Both the position numbers and the translations under genes were made by a program. This document shows positions 1-17,215 of a DNA stretch of 64,000 nucleotides, in pieces. The notes beneath the pieces are model-generated. The model searched no databases. It had not been told where the DNA came from and saw nothing but the letters and a program-made list of their open reading frames with translations. How positions within the stretch are numbered: position 1 is the stretch's first letter; each line of letters begins with the position of its first letter. Source of the stretch: Candidatus Wolfebacteria bacterium GW2011_GWB1_47_1 (GTDB lineage Bacteria; Patescibacteriota; Minisyncoccia; UBA6257; UBA9933); assembly GCA_001029635.1 (NCBI GenBank), contig CP011209.1, positions 618,435 to 682,434 on the forward strand. The letters are read 5' to 3'.

Positions 1-2
1 TT

Positions 3-968
3 CGGATATTTGAACAGAAGGCGAGGGAAGGTGTCCGTGTTCGTTTGTTGTGCGATGCCGCGGGCAGTTCTAATCTTTATAATTCCGCACGCGTAAAGCG
101 ATTGCTTGCGAGCGGCATCGAAGTGCTCTTTTTTAATCCCATCAAGCCGTGGCGCATTAATAACTATTCGTCATGGTTTTTCCGGGATCATCGAAAGGTA
201 TTGGTCATTGATTCCCATGTGGGATACATTGGTGGTGTCGGCGTGCATCAGCGCATGCATAATTGGCGCGATACACAGGTTCGTATCGAGGGGCCGGTGA
301 TCCATGAACTGGATTACGTGTTTGATCAGATGTGGAATCGCACTAAAGAGGGAAAGTTCTTTCGTTTTAATAAGCCATTTTTTAGTGCAGAGCAGCAGAC
401 TAGCAAGCCACAGGCGCTTACGAAATATTTTTATTTTCTCACTAATTCGCCCCGATTTCATCAGCGATTCATTTACCATAGCCTGATCGATGTGATCAGA
501 AATGCGCACACGTGCGTTTACTTGACTACGCCGTATTTTATTCCTGATCTGCGCCTTGTGCGTGTACTGCGGCTTGCGGCGCGCAGAGGGGTGGATGTTC
601 GCTTGATCGTTCCTAATGCATCAGACCATCCGATCGTCGACATTGCAACGCAATCGTATTTTTGGATTATGCTCAAGGCGGGGGTACGGATCTATCTGTA
701 TCGCGATCATGTGCTACATGCAAAAACTGTCATCATCGACGATGATTGGGCGTCGGTGGGGAGTGCAAATCTGGATAGCTTGAGCCTACTCCTTAACTAT
801 GAGGCGAATCTGGTCGGTACGAACCACACGTTTGTATCGGAATTAAGAGGGCACTTCATGGAAGATCTCAACCGGTCACGGGAAGTGATCTTTTCGGACT
901 GGAAAAAACGTTCCTGGTTTCGTAAGTTGTTTGAGGCAATCACGTGGCCTATTCACAAATTTTTGTAA
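3..968 (+). CDS. cls: cardiolipin synthase / phospholipase-D family protein, C-terminal part (5' end cut by window edge)
   Basis: frame open from nt 3 (RIFEQKAREGVRVRLLCDAAGS...); second HKD motif HAKTVIIDDDWASVGSANLD; track ORF 45..968 starts at an internal TTG. Confidence 0.75.
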   Translation, partial: RIFEQKAREGVRVRLLCDAAGSSNLYNSARVKRLLASGIEVLFFNPIKPWRINNYSSWFFRDHRKVLVIDSHVGYIGGVGVHQRMHNWRDTQVRIEGPVIHELDYVFDQMWNRTKEGKFFRFNKPFFSAEQQTSKPQALTKYFYFLTNSPRFHQRFIYHSLIDVIRNAHTCVYLTTPYFIPDLRLVRVLRLAARRGVDVRLIVPNASDHPIVDIATQSYFWIMLKAGVRIYLYRDHVLHAKTVIIDDDWASVGSANLDSLSLLLNYEANLVGTNHTFVSELRGHFMEDLNRSREVIFSDWKKRSWFRKLFEAITWPIHKFL

Positions 969-3168: not shown

Positions 3169-4279
3169 ACTATTCAACAATCGAAGGGGTGGGCATGCCC
3201 CGGATCATGTTTTTTTATGGACCCTTGGCATCCTTGTCGTTTTTGGGATCCTTATGCTTTCTAGTGCTTCCTCGGACCTGGGAAAGATTAAGTTTGATGA
3301 CACTTTTTTTTATCTGAAGCATCAGATCTACTATGGTCTTTTGCCGGGGATCGCCGGGTTTTTATTCGCGTCGTTCTTGTACTACAAACGATGGCAAACT
3401 ATGGCGTTATATTTGCTTCTCGTGAGTGTTGGCATGCTTTTGTTGGTATTTACCCCGCTTGGTATGCATTCGGGCGGGGCGACGCGGTGGATTAATATTG
3501 GTCCTGTTTCATTGCAACCTGCAGAATTGCTGAAGCTTACTTTTATCATTTACATGGCCGCATGGCTGAGTGGTAAGCGGACTAAACGACAAACGAGCTT
3601 CACTGAAGGATATTTGCCATTCCTTTCGATCTCAGGGTTTATTGCATTACTTATTGTATTACAACCAGCCACTACGACGGTTGCCGTCATTATGATGGCC
3701 AGTTTAATTGTTTATTTCATGAGCGGCGCAAAATTTAAATATATTGCCATGACGGTTGTGCTTGGGTTCGTTGCGCTTGCGATGTTGGTCGCGATAACCC
3801 CGTATCGCATGGAACGTGTCAAGAATTATTTTCGACAAGACAAGGTTGATGTCCTTGGGAAAGGATATCATTTGGAACAGGCGAAAATCGCCATCGGTTC
3901 GGGCGGCGCCATGGGGGTTGGATTTGGTCAATCTACGACAAAGTACAAATTTCTCCCTGAACCGATAGGGGATTCGATCTTTGCCGTTGTTGCCGAGGAG
4001 CTTGGTTTTGCCGGCTCGATACTCCTTATCTCCCTCTATATCCTGCTATTTACACGGGGGCTTCTTATTGCTAGCCGATGTAAGGATAAGTTTGGACAAC
4101 TTGCGGTGATTGGTATTATTTCCGTCGTTGCGATTCAAACGTTTATCAATATCGGAGCCATTTCTGGCATCTTGCCCTTAACGGGTGTTCCATTGCCATT
4201 TATTAGTTATGGAGGAACTGCGCTCGCTATTTTTCTTACCATGATGGGGGTTGTCGTCAATATATCGAAGCATGCATAA
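3155..4279 (+). CDS. ftsW: FtsW/RodA/SpoVE-family peptidoglycan glycosyltransferase (SEDS)
   Basis: 10-TM SEDS protein; adjacency to murG suggests ftsW rather than rodA. Confidence 0.8.
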   Translation: MHMNKLFNNRRGGHAPDHVFLWTLGILVVFGILMLSSASSDLGKIKFDDTFFYLKHQIYYGLLPGIAGFLFASFLYYKRWQTMALYLLLVSVGMLLLVFTPLGMHSGGATRWINIGPVSLQPAELLKLTFIIYMAAWLSGKRTKRQTSFTEGYLPFLSISGFIALLIVLQPATTTVAVIMMASLIVYFMSGAKFKYIAMTVVLGFVALAMLVAITPYRMERVKNYFRQDKVDVLGKGYHLEQAKIAIGSGGAMGVGFGQSTTKYKFLPEPIGDSIFAVVAEELGFAGSILLISLYILLFTRGLLIASRCKDKFGQLAVIGIISVVAIQTFINIGAISGILPLTGVPLPFISYGGTALAIFLTMMGVVVNISKHA

Positions 4280-5891: not shown

Positions 5892-7769
5892 ATGCTTCGT
5901 CATTTATTACTACTCGTCTTCTTTATCACCTTAACGTTGCCTGCCTCCGTACGGGCGTTTACCGTGCCATATCAACGGGTTTTTCAGCAACGGGGATCCA
6001 TTATGGCAATTGACGTGTACGGAGAAGCGGACCCGCATTATGTTCAGTGTGATCTTGATCAATGGACCTGTATAGAAACGGGTACGAGCACTCCCAACCT
6101 TTTCCCGGAATTTACTGAAAAGCAATATATTCTTTCGAAGGACCGACAACTCGCGCTTGTTTCAGAGGGGTATGGCGCTACGCAACAGTATGACCTGTAT
6201 ACATTGGAGGCCGGCGATGTGACAAAAAAGACAATTGATTTTATCGGGGAAACAAAGCGGGCTATCTTTAGCGATGATAATACGAAAATATTATTTGTCA
6301 CCTTGTATGGTGAGTTCGTTGTTTTTAACATTCAGACTAATAGTGCCATCAAAAGCATTCCTATCGTGGGTGGAGCTTCCTTTATCCGTTTTTCACCTCA
6401 CGGAAATTATGTCGCATATTTTTCTCCCAGCACACTGAGTGGAAAAGATCGGGTTTATACACTCGTTGATGTTGCACGCGGTCACACCTATACCTGGAAG
6501 GAAAAAAATGATTATTGGGACCTTTTGAGTGAGGAAGAAAAGGCCTTTGATTTTTCTCCCGATGAGCGGCACTTTTTTTATTTGAGCGATCGCGAGGGGA
6601 CGCAGACCCTGTATATGACCCGGCTCTGGCTTCTTGATGGGATCAATGGACGACTTGGTAAGCGAATGTTCAAATCCGACTTCACGGTGAACAATTTTCT
6701 CTTTGGTGCGGATGGACTACTATATTTTACGGCAAACCGCAAAAGTCCATTAATCTGGTCCCTCTACTCGTATGATTTTAGGGATCAATTGGTTAGAGGG
6801 CTTGTTGATGATGTGCTTTATTGGCCCGCACCACAACAGAGTGGTAAATACATTATATTCCTACGCTCGAAAAATGAGCTGCCTTCGTTGTATACATTTG
6901 ATATAACGAAACGTTCCGTTGCTTCGCTTCCATTGACTATCACTGCCTCGCCTTTTCCCCTTGGAGCGGGGAAGATAAAGAATTTTTCCGGACGCTATGG
7001 CGTTTTATACACACCCGATGGCTATGACAAGAAAAAGTCCTATCCTTTGATTGTGTGGTTGCATGGCGGCCCCCATAGACAGACATCCCCATCATTTCAT
7101 TCGTACCATAGTTACGGAACGTACGATGGCATATTGGAACATTTACGTAAAAATGGTTTCCTCGTACTCAAGCTTGATTATCGGGGAAGCTATGGATACG
7201 GGAAAAAATTTGCAACAGACCTAAAGGGTAATGTAGGCAATTTGGACGTCAAAGATGTTGTCGATGCTACCGCGGTACTTAAGAAGGAGATGAAGATCGG
7301 CGAGGTCTACCCTATGGGTACTAGCTATGGCGGTTATCTTGCGTTGCGTGCGTTGGCCGGCAAACCTACGTTGTTCGATGGTGCGATTTCCGTCAATGGC
7401 GTTACGGATTGGTGGACATTAATCAATAATGACCCCGATTCGATATTTCAGGTTCATTTTAACGGGACTCCTTCTGCAAAAAATAAAGTGTTATACGACC
7501 AGGCATCTATTTTCTTGCGGTTAAATAATCTTAAGAACAAGAAGGTCATATTGGTTAATGGCGAAGAGGATGCAACCGTGCCGCATCGTCAAACGACCAT
7601 GCTTTATGATGCCTTAATTGATAAGGGGATGGCTCCGACGATTATCTCCTACGAAAAAGAGGGTCATATTTTGACCAATAGCGCAAATATTGATGATCTG
7701 TGTAATCAGGTGGTTAAGTTGCCTACAGGGTATGAAGGAAAAGTGTGCGTGCAGGCAAGTACGCTTTGA
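5892..7769 (+). CDS. S9-family serine peptidase (prolyl oligopeptidase / dipeptidyl-aminopeptidase-like) with N-terminal beta-propeller and signal peptide
   Basis: signal peptide; C-terminal alpha/beta-hydrolase GTSYGGYLALRA (GxSxG) and HGGP motifs. Confidence 0.7.
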   Translation: MLRHLLLLVFFITLTLPASVRAFTVPYQRVFQQRGSIMAIDVYGEADPHYVQCDLDQWTCIETGTSTPNLFPEFTEKQYILSKDRQLALVSEGYGATQQYDLYTLEAGDVTKKTIDFIGETKRAIFSDDNTKILFVTLYGEFVVFNIQTNSAIKSIPIVGGASFIRFSPHGNYVAYFSPSTLSGKDRVYTLVDVARGHTYTWKEKNDYWDLLSEEEKAFDFSPDERHFFYLSDREGTQTLYMTRLWLLDGINGRLGKRMFKSDFTVNNFLFGADGLLYFTANRKSPLIWSLYSYDFRDQLVRGLVDDVLYWPAPQQSGKYIIFLRSKNELPSLYTFDITKRSVASLPLTITASPFPLGAGKIKNFSGRYGVLYTPDGYDKKKSYPLIVWLHGGPHRQTSPSFHSYHSYGTYDGILEHLRKNGFLVLKLDYRGSYGYGKKFATDLKGNVGNLDVKDVVDATAVLKKEMKIGEVYPMGTSYGGYLALRALAGKPTLFDGAISVNGVTDWWTLINNDPDSIFQVHFNGTPSAKNKVLYDQASIFLRLNNLKNKKVILVNGEEDATVPHRQTTMLYDALIDKGMAPTIISYEKEGHILTNSANIDDLCNQVVKLPTGYEGKVCVQASTL

Positions 7770-13287: not shown

Positions 13288-14009
13288 TTACGATTCGATC
13301 CATGAGGTTCTCCCGCGGAATGCATTACGCGGGAGGTCGTCCGGTAGGATGAGTGCCAATGCGAGGATCATATCGGCAATGTCATGCGCGAAGAAATCCA
13401 GTTCCGGTCCGCTCCAGCAAGGGTGTATGAAATCGGAGTCGAGGATCTTGAGCGTTTCTTGGAGTCTTTGTGCATTACCACCCCACCGTAGTAGCGCATT
13501 ATGTACCGTCACTGCGTCGCACACATTACGCGCAACGATGTATAGATGTTTTTCAGAAAACTTTTTGTCTGCTCGCTCGAGCGTGCGTGCCATTGTCTGC
13601 CCGCCCGTCAGGATGGATATCTCGCTTAACGCTCCCGTTTCGGAAACCTCTTTTTCCATTACCCTAACGAGGAATGCAATGATCTCTACGGCAAATAGAT
13701 CTGCCACGTATCCCCTTCCCATTGGTCCCAATTCGAATACCATGTGGTCGCCTCCTTTCTTTAGCAAAAGGTCGATCGAGTTGCTCGATGGAGATGCGTA
13801 TGTATTGGCGAGCCTTGTGTGATGACAATCGCCTTGATAAATACCTCTGCAACTTCTTCCGTTACGATATCGAGATCCCCCTCCCAATCCGGGTCGGCGT
13901 ATTTTTGGTCAAGCACCTTGATTATCATGGCTATCAGGTTTTGATTGCATGCGTATTCCGCCAATAGGACTTCCATATCATACCCTTCGGTCGCCGTACC
14001 CACGCACAT
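13288..14009 (-). pseudogene. probable frameshifted gene: Rossmann-like LOG/TIGR00730-family (lysine-decarboxylase-like) or RpiB-like protein split over two overlapping frames
   Basis: N-terminal frame 14009-13761 (MCVGTATEGYDMEVLLAEYACNQNLIA...) and C-terminal frame 13887-13288 (…LLLKKGGDHMVFELGPMGRGYVA…ISILTGGQTMARTLE…EKHLYIVARNV…) overlap by 127 nt; GGxxGxMG and PGGxGT-like motifs only in the second frame. Confidence 0.35.
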
Positions 14010-14033
14010 GACGAATGTGCCTACTTTTTTCTG

Positions 14034-14237
14034 TTACCCCTGTTGTTTTACGCGTGCTCCGATGATACCGTACTTATCCACAATGATTCGCACATTGCCA
14101 ATGGTTTCATCAGGGTCATCGTATGGCCTATCGGCAATGCGAGCCTCGAGTGATTCCAAAAGGGTTTCAATGCAGCTTTTTATAACCTCGGTTGGACTTG
14201 CGCCTCTGCGTTCTGTATCTGTCGAATCGGTACTCAT
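14034..14237 (-). CDS. hypothetical small acidic protein (67 aa)
   Basis: ORF only. Confidence 0.25.
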   Translation of the reverse strand: MSTDSTDTERRGASPTEVIKSCIETLLESLEARIADRPYDDPDETIGNVRIIVDKYGIIGARVKQQG

Positions 14238-14292
14238 TCGCGCACCTCCCTAGAGAAATTGTCATTGTTCTGCCTTTAGTCTATCGATAAAC

Positions 14293-14475
14293 TTACCGCT
14301 GCGTCAATTCGCACCGGTTAATGATGATCGGGGCTCGCTCCCCATCCTTCCCGATAATAACGCCAAGTGCGAAGCTTAACGTAGTTGCCAGAATCAAGAG
14401 TCCAGCGACGGCGATTTTTTGTTTGTGCTGTCCAACGGTTGTTTTGTAGTAAAAAACCTGGTCGTTAATGGTCAT
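14293..14475 (-). CDS. hypothetical small membrane protein (60 aa, one TM)
   Basis: ORF only. Confidence 0.25.
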   Translation of the reverse strand: MTINDQVFYYKTTVGQHKQKIAVAGLLILATTLSFALGVIIGKDGERAPIIINRCELTQR

Positions 14476-14640: not shown

Positions 14641-14934
14641 ATGGCACATACCAAAGCCAAGGGGTCTACTAAAAATGGCCGAGACTCCCAGGCACAACGA
14701 TTAGGAGTAAAGCGACAGCACGGCCAGACTGTCGGCGCAGGTGAGATCTTGATCCGCCAGCGTGGAACTAAATATTTGCCGGGTCTCAATGTTGCCCGCG
14801 CAAAGGATGACACCTTGTACGCGATGATCCCGGGAACCCTTCAGTTCTTGTCACGCACCAAGATTAAGTTTGACGGAAACAAGCGAAGCGTAAAAGTTTT
14901 GACCATTGTTCCGAAGACTGTTGTCGAGGCATAA
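14641..14934 (+). CDS. rpmA: 50S ribosomal protein L27
   Basis: [25 protein letters not shown]...[11 protein letters not shown]. Confidence 0.9.
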
Positions 14935-14946
14935 TGTGATATTATG

Positions 14947-14980
14947 AAAAATCCGCCTTTCAGTTGATGGGCGGATTTTT
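14947..14980 (+). terminator. intrinsic terminator after rpmA (aaaaatccgcc...ggcggattttt)
   Basis: hairpin and T-run. Confidence 0.75.
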
Positions 14981-15010
14981 GTGTCTTCATTTTCTTAAAA
15001 AACGTTTTCT

Positions 15011-15032
15011 GTACTTTTTCTGGAAAAAGTAC
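15011..15032. other. second hairpin gtacttttt-ctgg-aaaaagtac
   Basis: 9-bp perfect stem. Confidence 0.4.
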
Positions 15033-15143
15033 CAAAAAGCCTGCGAGCGAAATAAAAAAGCGGAATGCCTTTAAAAATTCCTTACGAAGTCCGAGGGTGC
15101 GCCCGTTTATCAACGGGTCCCCGCACCTCGGATTCTGTGGGAA

Positions 15144-15490
15144 TTTTTTGCGTTCATTCTGGTCGCTTTTTTACAGCTCGCGCCCGGATGTGAGGAGGTT
15201 TTCTTTGTCTATTTAATCCTTGTTTTTATATGATCGCAACATCGAATACGAGAATTTTTCTTCGTTCATTTATACTTTATTTTTACAACTCGCATTGGAA
15301 TGCGGGGAGATTTTCTTCGCCTATCTTCACGCCGTTTTTACATGCTCGCAGGTGCGAATGCGATTCAAGAATTTTTTTTGCCTTCATTGCGCAGCAGATT
15401 TTATTTTTCGTGTGCGCGTTGTCATCCGGCCCTTTATTTTTCATGCCGCTTGCCACGTGGAACATAATCATTTTTTTTATGTTGCTACCG
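15144..15490. repeat. array of about 6-7 degenerate tandem repeats, period 55-57 bp (T-rich half tttttcttcg.ttcatt..., then tttttaca.ctcgc plus a 15-17 nt GC-rich variable segment)
   Basis: unit starts near 15144, 15199, 15255, 15311, 15372 and 15437; lies between the rpmA terminators and the terminator of the minus-strand membrane gene; preceded by a nested hairpin at 15091-15131. Confidence 0.8.
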
Positions 15491-15491
15491 T

Positions 15492-15519
15492 AAAAAAAGA
15501 GCTGCGGCGTTGCAGCTCT
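15492..15519 (-). terminator. intrinsic terminator of the 15556..16209 gene (agagctgc-ggcgt-tgcagctct + T7 on minus)
   Basis: seen in sequence. Confidence 0.7.
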
Positions 15520-15555
15520 TTCTGTGTCTACGGGATGTTTTTTAGTTATGCCGAT

Positions 15556-16209
15556 TTACGATGACATCGGCTGAATTTCTTCTCGTGAGGAATCCGGTCG
15601 CCTTCCGTACTTTACGTAGAGAAACACAAGCAACCGCGCAACGAGGGCCACCCCCAGCACCTCCATTAAGAAGGTAAGGCCACTTACGGTCGCCTGTTCT
15701 CCTAGAAACGATAAGCCACTGATAAGAACATACCCAAAGACCGCGCAGGTGGTGGCTCCGCATAACATGATCGATTTCAGGGTTTCGCAGAATATCGAAA
15801 ATAGCAGGAACACGGGCATGGAAATCAGGATTAACATGGTGATGAACCACTCCGGGCGATCCGATCGCTGCGGCTCCTTGAGCTTCGGGATGAAACGCCC
15901 ATCTTGATAGCTGTAGGTGATTTCGGTTATTTCCGTTATCTGCCTGAGCGGTAATCCGAATTGTAGATCTATCGCAACTTCTTTGCCGGTCCAGCTTGCT
16001 CCTTTTCCGAATTGCTTCAGTCGGTAGGCTGTTGCCAGAGGCAGGTCCTTTGGAACATCGTTGATCATCTCGATCACTCTTTCGCCTTGGCTCACCACTA
16101 CGGCGTTTTTTACCCGCTGAAAGGACAATTCCTGATCAGCCGCAGCTAAGGCAAAACCTGAAACAGGTATACTTACCAGCAAGATTGCCATCAAAATTAT
16201 TGTTCTCAT
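15556..16209 (-). CDS. membrane protein: signal peptide, extracytoplasmic domain of about 110 aa, three C-terminal TM helices; unknown function
   Basis: SD GGGAGGGG at 16216-16226, which fits the second ATG at 16209 better than the track start at 16215. Confidence 0.55.
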   Translation of the reverse strand: MRTIILMAILLVSIPVSGFALAAADQELSFQRVKNAVVVSQGERVIEMINDVPKDLPLATAYRLKQFGKGASWTGKEVAIDLQFGLPLRQITEITEITYSYQDGRFIPKLKEPQRSDRPEWFITMLILISMPVFLLFSIFCETLKSIMLCGATTCAVFGYVLISGLSFLGEQATVSGLTFLMEVLGVALVARLLVFLYVKYGRRPDSSREEIQPMSS

Positions 16210-16312
16210 CGCCATCCCCTCCCTATCCTTTTAGTATGGTGTACTGAAAACAAAATTGCACATACCTGTTATTTTGTCAATCTCCAGCTTACGGAATGTG
16301 CTCGAGGTATTT

Positions 16313-16342
16313 TTGACTTTTTGTTGGATAGGCTTATATACT
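16313..16342 (+). promoter_or_regulatory. sigma-70-like promoter of the mini-ORF pair (TTGACT-N18-TATACT)
   Basis: -35 at 16313-16318, -10 at 16337-16342. Confidence 0.5.
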
Positions 16343-16390
16343 GGGGGTAGATTCTTTATCATTCGTCATTCTTAGTGAGGAGGTTTGAAA

Positions 16391-16534
16391 ATGTTTTCGA
16401 TACCGGGTGGCTTGGCAGAGCGATTGGGATTCCCTTCGTTCAATATCAATCTTGACCTCGATGATATCGCTGACGTCAGCGAGGAAGCAGCTGCTCACGT
16501 GTCAGTGAATCCCCGATTCGCCAGAAGGAGGTAG
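16391..16534 (+). CDS. small acidic peptide, 47 aa (MFSIPGGLAERLGFPSFNINLDLDDIADVSEEAAAHVSVNPRFARRR); leader-peptide-like
   Basis: strong SD GAGGAGG 7 nt upstream of the ATG; ends at TAG 16532-16534; below the track size cutoff. Confidence 0.55.
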   Translation: MFSIPGGLAERLGFPSFNINLDLDDIADVSEEAAAHVSVNPRFARRR

Positions 16535-16540
16535 TCTGAT

Positions 16541-16696
16541 ATGCTTATGCGAATTAAGCGTGGAGGAAAGATGGTTTTTATCCGCACTCAGCCTGCTCCG
16601 AGGACAAAGTGTTCGTGCGGTAAATTGGGGTGTTGCTGTGGCGCTGTTGATCTCTCGGCGCGTCCCTGGACAGGATATGGGTATCCCCATAGGTAA
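16541..16696 (+). CDS. small basic Cys-rich peptide, 51 aa (MLMRIKRGGKMVFIRTQPAPRTKCSCGKLGCCCGAVDLSARPWTGYGYPHR)
   Basis: SD AGGAGG 9 nt upstream; same reading frame as the preceding ORF, separated from it only by TAG plus 2 codons; 5 Cys within 10 residues. Confidence 0.55.
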   Translation: MLMRIKRGGKMVFIRTQPAPRTKCSCGKLGCCCGAVDLSARPWTGYGYPHR

Positions 16697-16720
16697 GCCG
16701 CCGCATTACTTTTTATGACA

Positions 16721-16752
16721 AATGCCTCGCCGATACGGCGAGGCATTTTTTG
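16721..16752 (+). terminator. intrinsic terminator of the mini-ORF operon (aatgcctcgcc-gatac-ggcgaggcatt + tttttg)
   Basis: 11-bp stem and T-run. Confidence 0.75.
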
Positions 16753-16756
16753 TTGG

Positions 16757-17215
16757 CTATTTTTCTGGATTGAGTGTGACGGTTATCGTGCCGTTGATAC
16801 TGTGACCAAAGCTTATTTTTATTGCATGTGCGCCAAGTGTTTTGATCTGTTTTTCAAGATCTACTTTAATCACCGCATGCGCTTTTGCCAGAGGAGAAAG
16901 CTTCGCCTTGACCGCTTCCTCGATCTCGTGCTTGGTTACCGAGCCGAATACTTCCCCATTCTTTCCTACCTTTGTGATAAAGATGAATGCGTCATCGGCC
17001 AGTGTCTTTGCCAATGCATGCAACTCTGCTTCCAGTGTCTGTTGTTGTTTTGCCTTGCTTTCCTTCTGTACTTGCAAGATATGTGTTTCATGTCCTGTGG
17101 CAATCTTAACCAGCCCCTTTGGAATGAGCATATTTTTTGCGTGACCGTCGGAGACGTTTTTTACTTCTCCCTTTTTTCCTATACCCTTAATATCCTGCAA
17201 TAATATTACCTTCAT
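16757..17215 (-). CDS. rplI: 50S ribosomal protein L9
   Basis: [35 protein letters not shown]. Confidence 0.9.

Follow-up and report, generated by a model that had tools for sequence, protein, structure and literature searches.

CPR bacteria such as the Wolfebacteria have tiny genomes, and differences between their strains are thought to govern dealings with hosts and phages. Three kinds of described system come close to the locus considered here. CPR genomes encode hypervariable surface proteins, including the targets of diversity-generating retroelements (DGRs), which have a C-terminal variable region. Integrons keep variable cargo at a fixed locus, beside imperfect palindromes with conserved ends and a variable centre (attC sites, with ends RYYYAAC/GTTRRRY). 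Class II bacteriocin loci join a double-glycine precursor to an immunity protein and an ABC/C39 exporter, so that short ORFs sit beside a small polytopic membrane protein, the form that immunity proteins commonly take.

The DNA analysed here (the window) is a stretch of 64,000 nucleotides from a Candidatus Wolfebacteria (CPR/Patescibacteria) bacterium. Between the ribosomal protein genes rpmA and rplI it carries a gene for a putative exported membrane protein and, divergently from it, two small protein genes that we call pep1 and pep2 (Table 1). We lean, with modest confidence, toward reading the membrane gene as a monocistronic, rapidly diverging accessory surface protein gene in a variable island, without a functional tie to pep1 and pep2. 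It is an uncharacterised, lineage-restricted accessory gene that had been deposited in GenBank as hypothetical (AKM78395.1 / KKU74578.1, from GW2011-series Candidatus Wolfebacteria genomes). These deposits equal the window sequence exactly, apart from differing start calls that give 211, 217 or 219 aa.

Table 1. Features of the rpmA-rplI region. Nucleotide positions are those of the window; protein segments are residues of the 217-aa product.
Feature	Position	Strand	Basis or remark
rpmA (L27), conserved left flank	14641..14934	+	Pfam
rpmA terminator hairpin	14947..14980	+	repeat/fold analysis
Long imperfect palindrome, 146 nt, GCGAGC...GCTCGC	15040..15185	.	homologous elements in L087, L098, L165
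Repeat array, four tandem copies, 55-57-nt period, TTTTYAYA-N1-2-NTCGC	15168..15403	+	motif of palindrome right arm
Membrane gene intrinsic terminator, 11-bp GC-rich stem then U7	15488..15533	-	-24.3 kcal/mol, z -5.9
Membrane gene CDS, 217 aa	15556..16209 (stop codon included)	-	ORF listing, alignment, hydropathy
Predicted signal peptide	residues about 1-22		sequence inspection
Predicted ectodomain, ~95 aa	residues about 23-120		hydropathy, alignment
Three predicted TM helices	residues about 121-143, 146-170, 175-200		hydropathy and AlphaFold helices
Shine-Dalgarno GGAGG, membrane gene	16218..16222	-	sequence; 8 nt upstream of ATG 16209
Membrane gene promoter: -35 TTGACA (16280-16275), 17-nt spacer, TGc and weak -10 AATTTT (16257-16252)	16252..16280	-	sequence
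pep1/pep2 promoter TTGACT-18-TATACT	16313..16342	+	consensus scan; homologous to L092 pep1 promoter
pep1, 47-aa acidic small protein	16391..16534	+	SD GAGGAGG at 16377-16383; kept in L092/L097
pep2, 51-aa basic Cys-rich small protein	16541..16696	+	SD AGGAGG within last pep1 codons
pep unit terminator, perfect 13-bp hairpin	16720..16748	+	between pep2 and rplI stop; conserved in L091
rplI (L9), conserved right flank	16757..17215	-	Pfam; S41 protease next

The preliminary description placed a 217-aa membrane protein at 15556-16209, and this call holds. The listing of open reading frames begins the gene six nucleotides earlier (15556..16215, 219 aa), and ATG 16209 is the best-supported start, since it has GGAGG 8 nt upstream, since both homologues described below begin at an aligned M-R-(T/Q)-I-I, and since two upstream boxes lie at matching distances from it in all three family genes (TTGAC at -71/-72/-73, TTCAG at -39/-40/-41). 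That real homologues exist also means that this is not a chance ORF.

The domain order first proposed, with a signal peptide, an extracytoplasmic domain and three C-terminal TM helices, likewise agrees with the predictions made here. The protein begins MR / TIILMAILLVSIPVSGF / ALA|AAD, that is, with a positive n-region, 17 hydrophobic residues and a small-residue site, and similar cleavage motifs are found in both homologues (AGA|A, FAA|D). Under rule-based inspection (n-region, h-region, small residues at -3/-1, AXA) this looks like a cleavable SPase I-type signal peptide for Sec export. Kyte-Doolittle windows of at least 1.6 cover residues 1-25, 119-145, 146-170 and 173-202. AlphaFold2 models from the single sequence (pLDDT 53) and from a three-sequence alignment (pLDDT 52.5) are both unusable as folds; the helices of both (121-143, 147-168 and 172-201 in the second) match the hydropathy segments. 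A Foldseek comparison of the second model with the PDB was meaningless (best E 0.27, TM <0.3). The C-terminal tail is basic (KYGRRPDSSR), so by the positive-inside rule an N-out/C-in orientation is predicted. Within the gene, a 9-nt tandem repeat (2.2 copies, 15920-15939) encodes ITEITEIT and explains a 2-residue insertion relative to the homologue P0122 (see below).

Transcription signals suggest a gene that stands by itself. It has its own promoter, which has the same geometry in both homologues and which a consensus scan missed because the -10 is weak, and its own strong terminator, 35 nt past the stop; the gene is therefore most simply read as a monocistronic unit. The preliminary description had the peptide genes share a back-to-back promoter region with it, including a TTGTCAA palindrome as -35. 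The divergent geometry and the heptamer (16274-16280) are both there, yet each unit has a -35 of its own: in minus-strand orientation TTGTCAA contains the TTGACA of the membrane gene, whereas the peptides use a separate TTGACT box. The two -35 hexamers lie back-to-back, 32 nt apart.

Searches of public data turned up few relatives of the membrane protein. A word-indexed search of 5.8 billion proteins returned the protein itself only, the seven members of its cluster being one sequence with different start calls, and a metagenome scan gave no match. With phmmer, 1.84 billion representatives yielded a single relative, P0122 (E 1.6e-5), which matches the window protein in pairwise BLASTP at 1e-13, with 33% identity over the signal peptide and ectodomain. 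P0122 as query found P0123 (E 1.3e-31, 36% identity), which tblastn relates to the window at 4e-6 and which is 23% identical to the window protein in the three-way alignment A3. All public copies of the window gene are identical, and the homologues are saturated for dN/dS. These comparisons show a family of three members, restricted to Wolfebacteria, in which conservation is limited to signal peptide, ectodomain and promoter geometry. No significant match was found in Pfam, NCBIfam, PADLOC or PHROGs for the membrane protein, its homologues or any of the small proteins, and a PDB sequence-profile search with A3 returned nothing at E<=10.

Both homologues lie at another locus, arranged as rpoC, then a small gene (86 or 75 aa) on the opposite strand, then the membrane gene and rpsF (L161/L162 and L163). 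The S6 proteins encoded beside them are 94% and 90% identical to S6 of the window organism, so the bacteria that encode them are close Wolfebacteria relatives that carry the family elsewhere. Between L161 and L163, rpoC is 94% and S6 90% identical, whereas the membrane proteins share 36% and the small neighbours 29%, and alignable DNA is left only at the promoter and 5' end of the membrane gene. A spacer so diverged between such flanks is therefore a hypervariable island. Sequence comparison thus shows family members in hypervariable islands between highly conserved translation or transcription genes, at rpmA|rplI here and at rpoC|rpsF in two relatives. P0122 and P0123 resemble the window protein in signal peptide, ectodomain, promoter geometry, a divergent small neighbour and a place between core genes; they differ in having more TM helices, a longer C-terminus, another locus and a non-homologous small neighbour.

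The small neighbours at the rpoC|rpsF island (L161 594-854, minus strand, 86 aa; L163 826-1053, minus strand, 75 aa) have nothing in common beyond GDxLxLC and, at the C-terminus, I(K/Q)CVPA; homology searches found them unrelated to pep1 and pep2. Still, the membrane gene is paired divergently with small ORFs, from back-to-back promoters, at all three loci, which leaves some room for the logic of a small protein and membrane protein module like that at L161 and L163. The family could then supply one of the two genes of a hypervariable module, perhaps a recognition pair or a polymorphic toxin/immunity pair, whose small partner was lost or replaced in the window, with pep1/pep2 now in its place. 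The motifs that the 86- and 75-aa proteins have in common, the TTGACA boxes 9-10 nt apart at both loci, and the strong divergence of both genes within well-conserved surroundings all speak for such a module. But such pairs occur at two loci only, the small proteins match no family, there is no toxin-like domain, and the window copy lacks such a partner, so that the membrane gene can stand alone; we regard the module as rather unlikely, if the least so of the alternatives.

The homologues are 276 and 283 aa long (P0123 and P0122, respectively) with roughly 5-6 TM helices, and the window protein, 60-65 aa shorter than either, lacks their C-terminal helices. Together with its confinement to one clonal population, this would fit a truncated, functionless remnant left in a variable spacer. 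Against such decay, the frame, the Shine-Dalgarno sequence, the conserved promoter geometry and the strong terminator close behind the stop are all intact, the downstream DNA holds no frameshifted remains of the missing part, and the three-TM topology obeys the positive-inside rule. A remnant therefore seems to us quite unlikely.

An accessory surface protein fits these observations better. In such a scheme, a sigma-70-like promoter, a Shine-Dalgarno sequence and an intrinsic terminator would drive the membrane gene as a single unit, and the product would leave by the Sec route, with its signal peptide cut after ALA. A domain of about 95 aa would then face outward from the membrane, to which the C-terminal three-helix bundle would anchor it, with a short basic tail on the cytoplasmic side. 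Since it has no output domain in the cytoplasm, the protein is more readily seen as an anchored surface or envelope protein than as a classical sensor. Export, conservation limited to the ectodomain, a variable number of TM helices and extreme divergence between conserved flanks all point to a protein of the surface or envelope with an external domain that would be under selection for change. The ectodomain would be the working part, diverging fast as it faces the outside, be it host cell, phage or competitors. That the protein takes part in a surface interaction is something we infer from its topology and rate of divergence.

DGR targets and further hypervariable surface proteins described from CPR genomes are likewise exported and diverge very fast, but no reverse transcriptase is encoded within +/-6 kb of this locus and there is no template/variable repeat pair. 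Where DGR targets change in one C-terminal region, at the Wolfebacteria locus the whole island is replaced or diverged.

The small genes on the other side of the divergent promoters have a history of their own. A pep1 homologue is found in a related lineage, L092/L097 (tblastn E 5.5e-16, 68% aa identity), and differences are distributed 11/12/26 by codon position (dN/dS about 0.17). Such a homologue and so low a ratio mark pep1 as a genuine gene for a conserved small protein; its family spans 47-48 aa, and it has been deposited without family assignment as KKU74579.1. The L092 copy (7431-7574, minus strand) directly follows rpmA and has a homologous promoter (TTGACTTTT...), a Shine-Dalgarno sequence, the same stop position and a terminator of its own. 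For pep2, the L091 spacer (run SRR12846150, L9 87% identical) has a counterpart followed by the same terminator adjoining rplI, on a contig that ends inside pep2; the C-terminus ARPWTGYGYPHR is matched there by TRPWAGYYHPFSGR, with synonymous changes.

The two frames are closely joined. The pep1 TAG and the pep2 ATG are in the same frame, two codons apart (16526-16543), and the pep2 Shine-Dalgarno sequence is formed by the last Arg codons of pep1, an arrangement that suggests translational coupling. We considered whether pep1-TAG-pep2 might be one gene split by a nonsense mutation and rejected this, as in L092 the homologous frame has its stop at that very position, with a terminator behind it. 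Within pep2, five Cys fall in ten residues (CSCGKLGCCC).

The preliminary description suggested that the membrane protein could be an immunity, export or sensor protein for these peptides. Such a bacteriocin-like cassette, co-regulated from the divergent promoter region, would account for the closely spaced divergent units, for the presence of membrane gene and peptides alike inside a lineage-specific spacer, for the Cys-rich, basic character of pep2 and for the polytopic form of the putative immunity protein. The two parts nevertheless occur apart, in both directions, an outcome that the preliminary description had named as refuting the link: pep1 lies beside rpmA in L092/L097, in a spacer without a membrane-gene homologue, and pep1 and pep2 are absent from the loci of the membrane homologues (L161-L163). 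Each occurs alone, so the partnership is not supported, and this negative outcome is our main result. Inspection of the peptide sequences agrees with it. Neither pep1 nor pep2 has a signal peptide, a 15-30-aa double-glycine leader or a hydrophobic mature part; pep1 is acidic with its sole GG at residues 6-7, and nothing in pep2 resembles a leader. Genes for an ABC transporter, a C39 peptidase or a modification enzyme are absent within +/-6 kb, where the Pfam content is SOD, GSDH, Gmad2/Germane, YgaP-like, LigT, S41 protease, L9, L27, NUDIX and M23, and the membrane protein and the peptides have no family match in Pfam, NCBIfam or PADLOC. Of the three marks of class II bacteriocin loci that were sought (leader, exporter and co-occurrence of peptide and membrane gene), the locus has none. 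A role for the membrane protein as partner of pep1/pep2 is thus unlikely, and we give it little credence.

Comparison of the rpmA/rplI spacer across relatives puts the membrane gene in context. The survey compared contigs with L9 homologues from 99% to 64% identity; a search of genome contigs with L9 brought up no close Wolfebacteria, the identities of its matches reaching 47% at most. The synteny S41-protease/rplI...rpmA is conserved in the relatives, and the convergent spacer is variable. It measures 1822 bp in the window, 38 bp in L164 (L9 78%), 94 bp in L083/L084 (81%), 258 bp in L085/L086 (77%) and about 340 bp in L094 (71%). Longer spacers carry other genes: 870 bp with an unrelated 188-aa gene in L088/L089 (69%), about 2230 bp with three other genes in L098 (66%), and, in L092/L097 (68%), 2224 bp with the pep1 homologue, a 72-aa ORF and genes for a membrane protein of 304 aa (called in L093) and a P-loop kinase-like protein of 208 aa. 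None of the surveyed spacers encodes a relative of the window membrane protein. Spacers between near-identical core genes can thus carry very different cargo, and the fast-diverging exported membrane protein family is one such cargo.

Names attached to these other genes are few. The 188-aa protein has a precomputed Pfam assignment to PF27329 'Rv1289', and the 208/211-aa P-loop protein bears the UniRef name '2-phosphoglycerate kinase'; further cargo in L088, L092/L093 and L098 includes a 201-aa gene and a 164-aa gene. Upstream of rpmA (13288-14475), small genes in succession encode hypothetical proteins of 60-199 aa without Pfam match; they have counterparts in L085, with a gene set that varies between relatives.

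The 1.8-kb block had first been described as an inserted accessory module. Accessory it is, as one state of a variable spacer whose other states are short or hold different cargo, but it is not one module. It is rather a mosaic, in which the conserved palindrome and the genes for the membrane protein, pep1 and pep2 differ in their histories. A 7-bp direct repeat, ATTTTTG (14975-14981 and 16309-16315), bounds a 1334-bp segment (14982-16315) that contains the membrane gene together with palindrome and array, and excising this segment joins the T-run of the rpmA terminator to TTGACTTTT, which is exactly the L092 junction. The repeat is a possible insertion scar; as a T-run, it could also be chance. 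Since the segment includes a palindrome that is also found in other relatives, the history must be more complex than a single insertion.

Such a scar, in a lineage-specific insertion, would fit a moron brought by a prophage or mobile element, with the membrane protein as, for example, a holin or superinfection-exclusion protein, and PHROG 2359 (holin) does match the membrane protein weakly. That match is not significant (E 0.049), and holins lack signal peptides and ectodomains, whereas this protein has both, the ectodomain some 95 aa long. There is no integrase, transposase, phage gene, lysin or reverse transcriptase within +/-6 kb, and searches of IMG/VR and of phage and plasmid collections with the membrane protein, pep1 and the 1.8-kb DNA gave no match. 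Given this, and a repeat that could be chance, we consider a moron highly improbable. The accessory surface gene that we favour would instead be lineage-specific cargo set beside older residents, namely pep1/pep2 and the palindrome.

The palindrome is shared by several Wolfebacteria. Its folding energy is -67 kcal/mol whichever strand is folded (z about -5), and it aligns full-length with elements in the same spacer of L087 (6654-6790), L098 (6403-6539) and L165 (4551-4687); 15 of 48 pairs on the plus strand and 13 of 46 on the minus strand are preserved by changes in both partners. Candidate roles include that of a recombination site, an insulator/terminator or a novel ncRNA; Rfam, searched with the window region and the relatives' spacers, gave sub-threshold hairpin matches only. 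As in an integron, variable cargo occupies a fixed place beside an imperfect palindrome whose ends are conserved and whose centre varies. The locus is unlike an integron in that no integrase is encoded within +/-6 kb, the ends are GCGAGC/GCTCGC, and each locus has a single palindrome where an integron has one for every cassette.

The tandem array next to it, whose motif occurs four times against 0.17 expected, is by its sequence a tandem amplification of one palindrome arm; its units have no significant structure of their own. Derived as it is from a conserved palindrome, the array would be an older spacer resident, locally amplified, and no part of a peptide/membrane system; a search for repeats linking the membrane CDS to the array found nothing beyond a 22-nt match at 73%. 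Two other identities for the array were rejected: CRISPR, as the conserved unit is only about 14 nt and lacks CRISPR-type spacer/repeat regularity, and DGR, as there is no reverse transcriptase or TR/VR pair.

What most merits follow-up at this locus is the pattern of hypervariable islands, together with the conserved palindrome. A bolder scheme, which we think doubtful, would combine them: Wolfebacteria-specific hypervariable modules, each an exported membrane protein with one or more divergent small proteins under back-to-back promoters, would be swapped at a few terminator-rich spacers between core translation and transcription genes, perhaps marked by the ~146-nt palindrome as a recombination or landing site, and would give these episymbiotic bacteria a means of strain-specific recognition, such as toxin/immunity, attachment to hosts or exclusion of phages. 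If the family does mediate strain-specific recognition, it offers a handle on CPR cell-surface biology. The shorter spacers also hold sequence of interest: in L085/L086 the 258-bp spacer (3745-4002) has, between two terminators, a TTGACA promoter-like box followed by a hairpin-forming stretch of ~110 nt, which is possibly a small RNA gene.
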